This document shows positions 60,693 through 63,998 of a stretch of DNA of 64,000 bases, piece by piece. The translations under genes were made by a program, and so were the position numbers. Position 1 is the first letter of the stretch. Every line of letters starts with the position of its first letter. Under the pieces are notes generated by a model that had not been told where the DNA came from, did not search any database, and was given only the letters and a program-made list of their open reading frames with translations. Location: contig CBDDIJ010000003.1 in NCBI GenBank assembly GCA_965228855.1, positions 352,001 to 416,000 on the forward strand, written 5' to 3'. The DNA is from Candidatus Obscuribacterales bacterium (GTDB lineage Bacteria; Cyanobacteriota; Vampirovibrionia; Obscuribacterales; Obscuribacteraceae).

Positions 60693-61604
60693 TTATGCCG
60701 CTGTCGTTGCCTTTTGCCCGACGTTGCGTGCCGAGGATTGCAATGTTTGCGAAACGACAAGCTCTTTCGCCGGTGCCGGTTTCGCAAGCGGGACCGTTCT
60801 TCCCACGGCTTGAGCGATAGGCTCGATCCGTTTCACCAGATCGCACATGTCCTGGAGCGACAGAGCTTGTCTGGCGTCTGAAACCGACTCTTCCGGACGC
60901 GGGTGGCACTCAATCATGAGACCGTCAGCTCCGCAGGCGATGGCCGCGAGGGCGAGGTCCGGAACCAATTCGCGCTTTCCGGCAGCGTGACTGGGGTCTA
61001 CCACGACCGGGAGGTGTGTTAACTGTTTCAGCGCCACGACTGCGCCGAGATCAAGGACGTTTCTCGTAAACGTATCGAAGCTCCGAATGCCGCGTTCGCA
61101 GAGAATGACGTTGTGATTTCCTTCGCTCATGATGTATTCAGCTGCCATGATAAATTCTTCAATCGTGGCGCACAGACCGCGTTTCAAAATAACCGGTTTG
61201 CTTGCCCGACCGACTGCCTTGAGCAATTCGAAGTTTTGCATGTTGCGGCTGCCAATCTGCAGCATGTCCACAATTGGATCCGCAACTTCGACATGACGTT
61301 CCGACATCACTTCGGTAACGGTTGGAAGTCCAGACGCGCGGGAGACTGCAGCCAGGATTTCCAGACCTTCTTCGCGCATTCCCTGGAATGCGTATGGCGA
61401 GGTTCTCGGTTTGAAAACACCGCCTCGGATGCAGTTGACAGAGCCTTTCAATGCTGAAGCCGATTGGGTCATCATATCCAGGTCTTCAACGGTGCAGGGA
61501 CCGCCGACGATCAATAGTTGCTTGTCTCCAACCGACACGTTCGATGTAATTTCGATTTTCGTCGTCTCGGTTCTTGTTCCTGCTAGTGCTAGTCTGGCAT
61601 CCAT
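60693..61604 (-). CDS. aroF: DAHP synthase (3-deoxy-7-phosphoheptulonate synthase, type I-beta) without ACT domain
   Basis: [46 protein letters not shown]. True start is likely ATG 61604 after AAGGAG, not 61841. Confidence 0.95.
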
Positions 61605-61651
61605 GATTTGTATTCTCCTTCGATTCATTTTGGGTGTGAAAAATTCTGTGT

Positions 61652-61689
61652 AACGAAACAGCCGGACTCCTTCTGGAAGTCCGGCTGTT
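61652..61689 (-). terminator. Attenuator 2 terminator hairpin
   Basis: RNA AACAGCCGGACU-UCCAGAAGG-AGUCCGGCUGUU-UCGUU: 12-bp perfect stem, moderate U-tail. Confidence 0.75.
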
Positions 61690-61710
61690 AGACGCTTTTC
61701 GCGATACAAC

Positions 61711-61773
61711 CTAGCGAGGACTTCCCCGAAGTGTCCGGCTTTGATAGTAGTAGTAAGTGCGTTGTTGAGACAT
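61711..61773 (-). CDS. Tyr-rich leader peptide 2: MSQQRTYYYYQSRTLRGSPR
   Basis: ATG TCT CAA CAA CGC ACT TAC TAC TAC TAT CAA...TAG; GAAGG RBS; contains GGAAGTCC complementary to the terminator 5' arm. Confidence 0.85.
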   Translation of the reverse strand: MSQQRTYYYYQSRTLRGSPR

Positions 61774-61805
61774 TGTTGAAAACCTTCTGTACTCTGCGTT
61801 TCGGG

Positions 61806-61838
61806 AAATAAAAAACCGCAGTCGTTATAACTGCGGTT
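61806..61838 (-). terminator. Attenuator 1 terminator hairpin
   Basis: RNA AACCGCAGU-UAUAACG-ACUGCGGUU-UUUUAUUU. Confidence 0.88.
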
Positions 61839-61872
61839 CACCTGTTTGTTTGCTGCGCATCACATCGCTAGC

Positions 61873-61923
61873 TCACATCTGGTGAACCTCATCGTTGTGA
61901 TAGTAGTAGTACTTGCGGGTCAT
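61873..61923 (-). CDS. Tyr-rich leader peptide 1: MTRKYYYYHNDEVHQM
   Basis: ATG ACC CGC AAG TAC TAC TAC TAT CAC...ATG TGA; GAGAG upstream; contains GGTTCACC complementary to GGTGAACC overlapping the terminator 5' arm. Confidence 0.85.
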   Translation of the reverse strand: MTRKYYYYHNDEVHQM

Positions 61924-62162
61924 GCTTACTCTCTCGGGCGGCGCCGTCATTTAATCTGCGGCTTCGATTAACTTTAGCCACTCTACACTCGGAAGATGTG
62001 CCAAGTCAAGCAAAAGTTTCCGGCGGTAACGTCATTGTTAACCAGGTCCGTTTGAGATGGTTTCGACCAATAGGAAAATAGTAATTCAATTACCTATTAT
62101 CTATAGACGCCGAGTTTTCCATTAGAGTTTGTCGGATTTTAAATGCGTCAAACTGTTGCGGA

Positions 62163-63077
62163 TTAACTCCCGTCGCCATCTTCAGCACCGAGCTCGCCGA
62201 GGCGCTTCCGGAGCCCGTTTATGATTTCATTGCGAGCATTGAGGAGGTCCAGAAGGGCATCATATTTGGTGCCATAAGAATCAACTTCGTTCTGCAAAAT
62301 TGCATTCGTCAGAGCGTTGTTTTCGGCCTGCTCTTTGATTGCCTCGATTGCTGCGATTAGCTGACGAATCAGGTCTCGCATATCCACGGATGTGTTTTTG
62401 TGCGCGTTGCCGCTTGCGACATCATCGGCTATTCGCTGTAATCGCTTGGTTAACTTTTCGCATTTGCGAACATTGTGCTCGACCGTGTTAACGTCGGTAT
62501 CATCGAAATCTTGAATTATCGCCATCCGCCGACGCACTTCGGCCTCAACTTCTTGTGCTGTAATGTTGTTGACGTGCATCGGACCTGCACAGATTTCTCG
62601 CCAGGGCGCTCCGGCAAGAGCTTGACGCACGATCACTTCGAAAACTTGCTCTCTGACCCCGGCGCCGTATTTGCCCTGACGATTGGCGTCCTGCTGCGGC
62701 GAATCCTTTGATGGTTTAAACAGCTTACCGAGTTGCGGCAGATTGAACTTAGGTATGCCGCCTTCGCGAGGAGATTCTTTGCTGCCCGGCTCCCTCGGAG
62801 TCTCTTTCTCATCCGATGCCGTAGACCGACCGGGCGGATCGGCAAAGTCCGGTAAGACGCTGAATGGCGGCTCGATACGTGAGCCGTCAAAAGTACTTTC
62901 GAATCGGGAGTTGCAGAATCTGCAGACGGACGCCCCTGTGCGGATCATCTCGCGGCACGATGCGCAAGGAGAAAACTGTGCCGGGTCGATTCCACGTTGA
63001 CAAAAGCGGCAAAGCGCGGCGCCCTTAGCGATTGTTTCGCTGCAGTGTGGGCAAGCCGTCGATTCGCGTTCGTTCAT
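62163..63077 (-). CDS. Double zinc-ribbon domain protein with C-terminal coiled coil
   Basis: CPHC..CRFC..CASC..CRFC; ATG 63077 follows GAGG. Confidence 0.8.
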   Translation of the reverse strand: MNERESTACPHCSETIAKGAALCRFCQRGIDPAQFSPCASCREMIRTGASVCRFCNSRFESTFDGSRIEPPFSVLPDFADPPGRSTASDEKETPREPGSKESPREGGIPKFNLPQLGKLFKPSKDSPQQDANRQGKYGAGVREQVFEVIVRQALAGAPWREICAGPMHVNNITAQEVEAEVRRRMAIIQDFDDTDVNTVEHNVRKCEKLTKRLQRIADDVASGNAHKNTSVDMRDLIRQLIAAIEAIKEQAENNALTNAILQNEVDSYGTKYDALLDLLNARNEIINGLRKRLGELGAEDGDGS

Positions 63078-63149
63078 CACAACAGCCTCAAGTCTCAGTT
63101 TCAATCTTATTCCACGCCGTGATAATTTGCTCACGCTCTGTTGCTGAGC

Positions 63150-63998
63150 TTAAACTGCCGGTTTGTCAGTCTGAGACGAGTTTTCAATGAGGCTATCAGT
63201 TTCCTGTTCCAGGTAGTCCCGCCGGGTCGTATAAGCCAGCTGATTGGTCAGCTGGGCAACTTCGTCCTGTCTTATCTTGTGCACCTCGTTTAAGGCGAGC
63301 GTCAGGTCCGGAGCAGCTTCATCGAGGGTCATGCTCAGTCGTTCGATGCGCTCGTTATATTTGCGAATGCGAACATTCTGAAATTGAACATTAATCCAGC
63401 GAAACGCCGGAAAGAACAAGAAGAAGCTAGCGTAAAGAGCGAGCACCAGGAAGAAATTCTCCGACGAGCTGTCACTGCTCTGGACGGCGTAGAGCATGTA
63501 CCAGAAAAACACCGTGCCGAAGAAGTTCGAACAAGCGAGCAGCAAAATCGGTTTGAGCGAATCGGTACTTATATCAGTAAACACAACAGGTTGCATCGTG
63601 ACGGCGCGAGGTGGCTGTGAATGACGCGATTCATGTGACTCTTCGTCTCTGGCGTCCGGTGCAAAATTGAGAGCGCTTTTCGAAACGGCCGCTTGCATCT
63701 CCGGAAATTTGTAAATCAAATGACCCGATGGTGTGGCGCCGGGCACGCCGTGAAATTTTGCCAGAACCGGGAATGCCGCTTCTACCTCGGTAGCAGCAGC
63801 GCCAACCAGGGGCGCGAGTTGTTCGGGCAGGATGATGCCCTGATTTGCGCGAATCAACTGCGCAACTGCTTTTGACTTCTCGTTTTCAAAATTCTGGTTC
63901 GGGTTGCCGGGACCGAATAATAATGTGTAGCAGTTTAAAAGGAAACCTTTGTCGTCCTTGACGCTCTGAACCTGCTCGGCGGAATCGTTACTCTTCGT
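63150..63998 (-). CDS. Conserved membrane protein of a cyanobacterial/plastid-type family (partial, 5' end outside the window)
   Basis: Frame open to the window edge; FGPGNPN...IRANQG...EQLAP...PVL.KF.G.P.....G.LIYKFPE pattern recognised from memory, plus two TM helices. Confidence 0.65.
   Translation of the reverse strand, partial: TKSNDSAEQVQSVKDDKGFLLNCYTLLFGPGNPNQNFENEKSKAVAQLIRANQGIILPEQLAPLVGAAATEVEAAFPVLAKFHGVPGATPSGHLIYKFPEMQAAVSKSALNFAPDARDEESHESRHSQPPRAVTMQPVVFTDISTDSLKPILLLACSNFFGTVFFWYMLYAVQSSDSSSENFFLVLALYASFFLFFPAFRWINVQFQNVRIRKYNERIERLSMTLDEAAPDLTLALNEVHKIRQDEVAQLTNQLAYTTRRDYLEQETDSLIENSSQTDKPAV

Follow-up and report, generated by a model that had tools for sequence, protein, structure and literature searches.

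A leader rich in aromatic codons upstream of a DAHP synthase gene, in which ribosome stalling raises transcription, has been described in Corynebacterium glutamicum, whose aroR-aroF attenuator was reportedly the subject of a study by Neshat et al. in 2014. As far as the available sections of the literature go, this leader reads Phe-Tyr-Phe and responds to Phe, and its Tyr codons gave no Tyr response (PMC11802643; PMC4046766), which weakens a Tyr-sensing reading of the leader described here. The two loci are alike in placing such a leader before a DAHP synthase, but aroR is a single unit, whereas here we find two units with four Tyr codons each, together with a paralogue led by Phe and Trp codons. 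The trpL and pheL leaders of Escherichia coli, in the portions of the accounts at hand, likewise combine a short ORF of cognate codons with an antiterminator that overlaps an intrinsic terminator (PMC11802643; PMC11878033), but they are single rather than tandem; the Tyr genes of E. coli are, by the same partial account, controlled mainly through TyrR (PMC11878033). Two short ORFs within one leader, each associated with alternative structures, are found in the Salmonella mgtCBR operon (mgtM and mgtP), a tandem called a singular example in the available text (PMC3641672). There, the ORFs respond additively to two signals, ATP and Pro-tRNA, in a virulence/Mg operon (PMC3641672, same sections), whereas the locus described here would read one signal twice, has a hairpin terminator for each unit and precedes a biosynthetic operon. 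Finally, an attenuator (uORFC-13-1) has been proposed upstream of aroF in Acholeplasma (PMC8632094), and an 'attenuator sensing tyr-tRNA' is listed for Shewanella aroF, after a 1980 E. coli study (PMC2659441). In the available descriptions, both elements are single, predicted or hypothesised, and come from other phyla, with neither a tandem nor a partition between paralogues.

For cyanobacteria, a 2016 paper stated, in the part available, that there were no reliable data on attenuation (PMC4833913). The accessible portions of other sources are similarly sparse: a 2010 paper knows leader peptides in Proteobacteria, Actinobacteria and bacilli, a 2026 preprint presents an unrelated and speculative 45-aa peptide before Synechocystis aroQ, a review raises the possibility that many bacteria show runaway transcription with no tie to Cyanobacteriota, and a mention of attenuation was not found in the available text of a preprint on cyanobacterial termination. 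An earlier note on this DNA had considered Tyr leader peptides, tandem attenuators and attenuation in this lineage to be rarely or not described; aroR, the proposed Tyr-tRNA aroF attenuator and mgtCBR are, as far as their available descriptions go, partial precedents for these points. Our search of the literature, mostly of open-access main texts, brought up no paper dealing with this family, with tandem attenuators that share one signal or with a partition of leaders between paralogues; supplementary motif tables could contain the element.

The stretch analysed here (hereafter, the window) comprises 64,000 nucleotides from a Candidatus Obscuribacterales bacterium, which belongs to a branch of the Cyanobacteriota that does not photosynthesise. 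Judging from sequence comparison and fold models, we consider it probable that the leader preceding its aroF gene is a conserved tandem attenuator of the classical ribosome-stalling type, most likely one that senses Tyr-tRNA. What the analysis adds is the division of the aromatic amino acids between the leaders of paralogues. This division, with the Tyr-only leader as its derived half opposite a Phe/Trp-only paralogue, and the phylum-wide spread of the tandem family are the two points that the earlier note did not contain.

Anatomy of the leader and its operon

The leader lies on the minus strand and all coordinates refer to the whole window (Table 1). The earlier note had described two short ORFs sharing the block TAC TAC TAC TAT, each with its own hairpin and an 8-nt antiterminator segment downstream of the Tyr run, hidden in the ORF track by an over-extended aroF; this anatomy was recovered in full, with the qualification that the second U-tract is interrupted. 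The 382-aa ORF starting at GTG 61841 was set aside as over-extended in favour of ATG 61604, which has a strong Shine-Dalgarno (SD) sequence (-9.3 kcal/mol) and is the start in 8/8 members of the genus. The SD sequences of the leader ORFs are weak (-4.4 kcal/mol for uORF1 and -4.1 kcal/mol for uORF2), and an in-frame ATG upstream of uORF1, at 61950, was not adopted as its start (SD -0.7). Four consecutive Tyr codons are a rarity in this 8.2-Mb genome: among 73,177 short ORFs (ATG starts, distinct stops, 8-35 aa), the motif YYYY occurs in two, and these are uORF1 and uORF2.

Table 1. Features of the aroF leader and operon in the window, and candidate leaders elsewhere in the genome
Feature	Position	Strand	Remarks
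sigma70-type promoter, TTGACT-18-TAGAGT	61980..62009	-	predicted; start probably near 61973
Leader ORF 1 (uORF1), MTRKYYYYHNDEVHQM	61873..61923	-	Tyr codons 5-8
Unit 1 antiterminator strand A	61881..61888	-	pairs with 61842-61835
Unit 1 strand B, over the uORF1 stop codon	61871..61876	-	local hairpin with strand A, -7.5 kcal/mol
Intrinsic terminator 1	61805..61839	-	predicted; stem 61839-61813 plus U-tract
Leader ORF 2 (uORF2), MSQQRTYYYYQSRTLRGSPR	61711..61773	-	Tyr codons 7-10
Unit 2 accessory antiterminator strand, 8-mer	61734..61741	-	complementary to hairpin 2 3' arm, 61667-61660
Unit 2 main antiterminator strand, Gly-Ser-Pro codons	61718..61725	-	pairs with 61682-61675
Terminator 2	61650..61689	-	predicted; stem 61689-61657, -24.0 kcal/mol
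Class I-beta DAHP synthase (aroF), 303 aa	60693..61604	-	TIGR01361 above cut-off; PF00793
AroQ-type chorismate mutase, 113 aa	60294..60635	-	PF01817
Candidate leaders (His, Trp, Leu, Ile/Leu/Val and Thr, in this order)	G000:C3:1552602, 2451365, 3640841, 3642951, 2639751		own genome, outside the window

Promoter prediction and the genus alignment place the promoter 5' of both units; among the 8/8 genus members, TTGAC and, within the -10 box, T-A..T are invariant and the spacer is variable. A main promoter downstream of both units, the possibility that the earlier note had set against its own reading, found no counterpart: the sole candidate downstream of the leader (61640-61612) overlaps the SD region, lacks conservation and was dropped, and the conserved promoter lies upstream. 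The leader as a whole folds more stably than expected (z = -3.18; 0/100 shuffles equally stable). Hairpin 1, with a stem of -15.3 kcal/mol and a good U-tract, was called by a consensus terminator scan, which missed hairpin 2; the U-tract of the latter is interrupted in this genome (TGTTTCGTT) and cleaner in relatives. Strand A begins on the third base of a Glu codon, takes in the Val and His codons and ends on the first base of a Gln codon, and the local hairpin that it can form with strand B is a candidate pause or protector structure. Complementarity resembling that of the unit 2 accessory strand is visible in some relatives within the genus (uncounted).

The DAHP synthase has no N-terminal regulatory domain, its match to NF006421 starting at profile position 76, and PF18152, the N-terminal ferredoxin-like domain, has no match at this gene. 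The two ORFs upstream of the leader (62163-63134 and 63150-63998, minus strand) gave no NCBIfam match; the first carries repeated CxxC motifs, and no operon link was seen.

Conservation and distribution of the tandem leader

Examination of the aroF upstream regions of relatives, as the earlier note had proposed, revealed pure or near-pure Tyr runs of 4-7 codons in both leaders in 8/8 genomes of the genus. Wider alignments, described below, show covariation in the unit 1 antiterminator and terminator and in the unit 2 terminator. The third positions of the Tyr codons vary between TAC and TAT across the genus while Tyr is kept, so the identity of the TAC TAC TAC TAT blocks in the window is incidental. 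The position of the in-frame uORF1 stop codon is shared by 51/51 aligned homologues.

Such conservation of leader start, frame and stop runs counter to an RNA switch that binds a protein or a tRNA (TRAP-like or T-box) and in which the ORFs would be incidental. Alternative helices can by themselves work without translation, but no Rfam family came near its gathering score in a search of the leader (the best relevant match, Thr_leader, reached 21.1 bits against 55), other leader families and the T-box being unlisted among the leader matches, and we regard the chance of a switch of this kind as close to negligible.

Across the family, 29 of the best 30 loci have upstream DNA, and of these 26 carry two aromatic leader ORFs, two carry one and one carries none. 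Among the family loci on genome contigs, two aromatic leader ORFs precede 71/80, including mixed Phe/Tyr/Trp runs in Microcoleus, Stenomitos, Leptolyngbya, Pantanalinema, Trichodesmium and Aphanothece. The unit 1 covariance model (R1) matches 75/104 family genomes and 21/151 genomes across the phylum, with 0/50 in family f6; because some diverged units (L121, L233, L122 and L256) escape it when genomes are searched, its absences mean 'not found' only. All 20 phylum matches other than our own precede a DAHP synthase sequence, 18 with two leaders, one with a single leader and one that looks disrupted. Sequence comparison thus places a family of putative tandem attenuators before DAHP synthase genes in Obscuribacterales and in many oxygenic cyanobacteria. 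The family offers a conserved, testable case of attenuation in Cyanobacteriota, cultured oxygenic genera included, and such leaders would be relevant to the engineering of aromatic production in cyanobacteria.

Within the genome of the window, the unit 1 model matches two sites only and fails to match unit 2, so the tandem is no simple duplication. At one locus (L021, G008:C6:60181-60446), two unit 1-type elements follow each other, a tandem layout reached in a second way. Two other loci look damaged, either as broken genes or through assembly error: in L124 (G016:C5:511612-512486) the leader-bearing DAHP synthase is split in two frames, and in L151 (G106:C49) a leader remnant is fused to an internal gene fragment.

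Distribution also bears on whether both units terminate. If only unit 1 did so here, hairpin 2 would be a pause site, an RNA-stabilising stem or a leaky, decaying terminator, as its interrupted U-tract and its absence from the scan results could suggest; hairpin 2 tails are weak in some relatives too, and several family members have one unit only (L012, L022, L188 and L209). However, uORF2, its Tyr run and both arms of hairpin 2 are kept in 8/8 genus members, several of them with clean U-tracts, and hairpin 2 is the stronger of the two stems. It lies ~35 nt upstream of the aroF SD, a separation that would leave the SD unhidden. We therefore hold termination by unit 1 alone to be unlikely and continue with two terminating units as the preferred reading.

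Covariation and predicted folding

Unit 1 (alignment n = 51) comprises three competing helices. Kin are non-independent in all counts given here, and the controls keep this relatedness. The unit 1 antiterminator has 93.6% of its cells paired (0/500 shuffles as high; slid alignments <=50.8%) and two-sided changes at 8/11 pairs. The local hairpin and terminator together reach 93.3%, with two-sided changes at 5/10 terminator pairs and at only 1/7 local-hairpin pairs. In unit 2 (n = 38), two-sided changes occur at 6/10 terminator pairs, and the antiterminator is 80.9% paired against <=57.5% when slid, although its count of two-sided pairs, in an alignment whose own-genus rows are one column out of register, was not better than in shuffles (109/500).

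The covariation also qualifies a reading of the leaders as TnaC-like arrest peptides that sense a free amino acid through functional EVH and GSP motifs. Endings of the type EV(H/R) and (G/S)SPG recur across the phylum, but the antiterminator strands run through these very motifs, whose substitutions (His/Arg and others) are matched by compensating changes in the partner strand; moreover, arrest by abundant Tyr would presumably turn a biosynthetic operon on when it is unneeded. This makes arrest peptides a highly improbable explanation, and we retain stalling on aromatic codons as the signal.

Switching was modelled by equilibrium folding with an assumed ribosome footprint as a mask. In this model, a ribosome placed at the first aromatic codon gives the unit 1 antiterminator P >0.5 in 51/51 sequences, and one placed at the stop does so in 0/51; unit 2 behaves in the same direction in 51/52. 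For the window, the unit 1 antiterminator is predicted to form with the A site on Tyr 5-8 and to be gone by codons 10-11, and that of unit 2, in the nascent state, to last to about codon 12-13, which places the modelled switch point just past the Tyr runs. At full length, by contrast with the antiterminator-first picture, the terminator base has P >0.5 in 28/51 unit 1s even when the ribosome sits at the first aromatic codon, and in unit 2 of the window the terminator is favoured at equilibrium from about the third Tyr on. Stalling at the last aromatic codon, which usually lies too close to the strand, releases the antiterminator in only 1/51 unit 1s. Since full-length equilibrium often favours the terminator, the switch would depend on the antiterminator having kinetic priority and forming first.

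Without a ribosome, the RNA adopts the antiterminator fold in the same model (mean 0.97 over 51 unit 1s), which predicts a default-open switch. Untranslated trpL RNA terminates, whereas read-through is predicted here; the local hairpin of strands A and B, a candidate protector, is conserved, yet untranslated RNA is predicted to form the antiterminator. Because ribosome-free RNA takes this fold, read-through would be expected from any delay ahead of codon 10, and the leaders might accordingly sense general translation speed or coupling and not Tyr in particular. Codon identity, however, tracks function, with complementary Tyr, Phe and Trp codons between gene copies and other codons before other genes, as detailed below, and Tyr is kept despite third-position variation, which makes a general sensor very unlikely.

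The preferred reading is accordingly that of two ribosome-mediated transcription attenuators in series between one promoter and the operon for DAHP synthase and chorismate mutase. When Tyr-tRNA is low, a ribosome delayed on the Tyr run would leave the later strand of the leader ORF free to capture the 5' arm of the terminator, and RNA polymerase would read through; a ribosome past the Tyr run would cover this strand, allowing the terminator to fold and end transcription. RNA polymerase would have to pass both units to reach the operon, which may render the response tighter or steeper, and the enzymes, which serve the shared synthesis of Tyr and Phe, would most likely be made only when Tyr is short. 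The trpL/pheL-type architecture named in the earlier note gains support from conservation, covarying and mutually exclusive helices, the upstream promoter, the mask model and codons that track the genes. A unit with a pure Tyr run would provide a test of whether Tyr-tRNA can drive a classical attenuator, which the C. glutamicum system did not show, and two serial units for the same signal make the predicted multiplicative response measurable.

Partition of Tyr, Phe and Trp between paralogues

The genome encodes three class I-beta DAHP synthases. The second (L111 on G000:C5) is fused to a chorismate mutase and preceded by a homologous tandem leader (MRNFGFFWFSEVHPG and MSNKGFWFFAFRVPGR, at about 327500-327900) with Phe and Trp codons and without Tyr. 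The third (C5:383098) is the sole PF18152 match of the genome, a weak one (25.2 bits, cut-off 27), and an aromatic leader was not found upstream of it. Chorismate mutases were found only at the two leader-bearing loci (two PF01817 matches), PF07736 giving 0 matches in this genome, which is 95% complete. The Tyr-only leaders of the window are half of a partition with a Phe/Trp-only paralogue. Tyr shortage would open the window copy and Phe or Trp shortage the fused second copy, and since the leader of the paralogue holds Phe and Trp codons only, either shortage would open one of two entries into the shared pathway.

Two leader-bearing copies are present in 17 genomes from five genera, and the copies share out the three amino acids between them, a split that is clear in 15 of these genomes and partial in two. 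All three possible splits occur: Tyr against Phe and Trp in 8/8 genomes of the own genus and in G026; Tyr and Trp against Phe in G236, G239 and G234 (where unit 2 alone is readable for one copy) and partly in G238, with one copy still mixed; and Tyr and Phe against Trp in G009, G268, G269 and, less cleanly, G012. Leaders of single-copy genomes are mostly mixed. In an automated tally that included a few off-frame ORFs, a Tyr/Phe skew of >=80% characterised 24/26 loci of the first 13 two-copy genomes versus 5/60 'single-copy' loci, four of the 60 'single-copy' genomes later proving to be two-copy with a Trp-led second copy; three of the five skewed 'single' loci belong to genera showing the two-copy state. 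At the 11 loci of leaderless extra copies (L118, L119 and L247-L255), no match to the unit 1 model was found, and in the nine genomes of L247-L255 the leader-bearing copy is still mixed. Exceptions are G237 (95% complete), with a single Phe-only copy, and G233, G235, G270 and G271, with a single Tyr/Trp-rich copy. The Tyr-only state itself appears to be derived.

The partition amounts to a natural codon-swap experiment and supports amino-acid-specific sensing; it also illustrates regulatory subfunctionalisation by a few codon changes. The DAHP synthases AroF, AroG and AroH of E. coli are similarly split among Tyr, Phe and Trp, but there, according to the available sections, through allostery and the TyrR and TrpR repressors (PMC11878033; PMC7997468), whereas here the split lies in leader codons before enzymes without the N-terminal regulatory domain. 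We lean towards the view that a comparable division of labour has been repeatedly rebuilt in Obscuribacterales purely via leader codons and, most speculatively, that a doubled, default-open switch may secure a low basal level under loose transcription-translation coupling.

History of the gene copies

In quick trees, the Phe/Trp copy of the own genus falls into a well-supported clade with mixed-leader copies of single-copy genera, and its lack of Tyr is for this reason probably derived. Approximately unbiased (AU) tests (34/84 rows, LG+G4), for groups named after the quick trees had been viewed and on an unresolved backbone, rejected one clade for all Phe-type copies (p-AU 6.5e-5) and one clade for both own-genus copies (p-AU 0.012). 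For the Tyr-type copies, the tests gave no grounds to reject a single clade (p-AU 0.50), and an independent origin of these copies was dropped as a proposal. The Phe-type copies appear to stem from at least two gene lineages; because the groups are post hoc and the backbone is unresolved, we confine the claim to at least two partner lineages and give no count of Tyr origins.

Attenuator-like leaders before other genes

Related elements precede genes other than those of DAHP synthases. At L188 (G229:C2:3402184-3402302), a unit 1 scaffold with a Trp-Trp leader lies before a trpE-like gene and is probably a recent copy of the aroF unit. L185 (G212:C4, about 71080-71840) and L187 (G213:C4) carry unit 1-type leaders, MFLIQEQQFHTRFA and MFFQEQQFHMRFA, whose codons specify Phe, Gln, Glu and His and which sit immediately ahead of a gene cluster for tRNA-Phe, Gln, Gln, Glu, His and Glu, in flanks that look chromosomal. 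A Tyr-rich tandem pair, LNRSYYYYCFLEVHQG and VRNCYYGYAYQARGEPRVT, precedes PvcA/DIT1-family and TauD-family genes at L183 (G023:C20); because Tyr is a substrate of the PvcA family, induction by Tyr shortage would be odd there. Weak model matches before aspartyl-tRNA synthetase-like genes (identified by eye) at L200 (G014:C129) and L201 (G036:C15) are accompanied by stretches rich in Asn/Asp codons that precede a similar terminator.

In the genome of the window itself, a leader scan passed 24 candidates, many of them probably due to chance, among which leaders rich in His, Trp, Leu and Ile/Leu/Val, followed by terminators, precede hisG, trpE, leuA and ilvD (Table 1). As these leaders precede their cognate genes, attenuation would seem to be routine in this lineage. 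The candidate Thr leader precedes a thrS-like gene, recognised by eye only.
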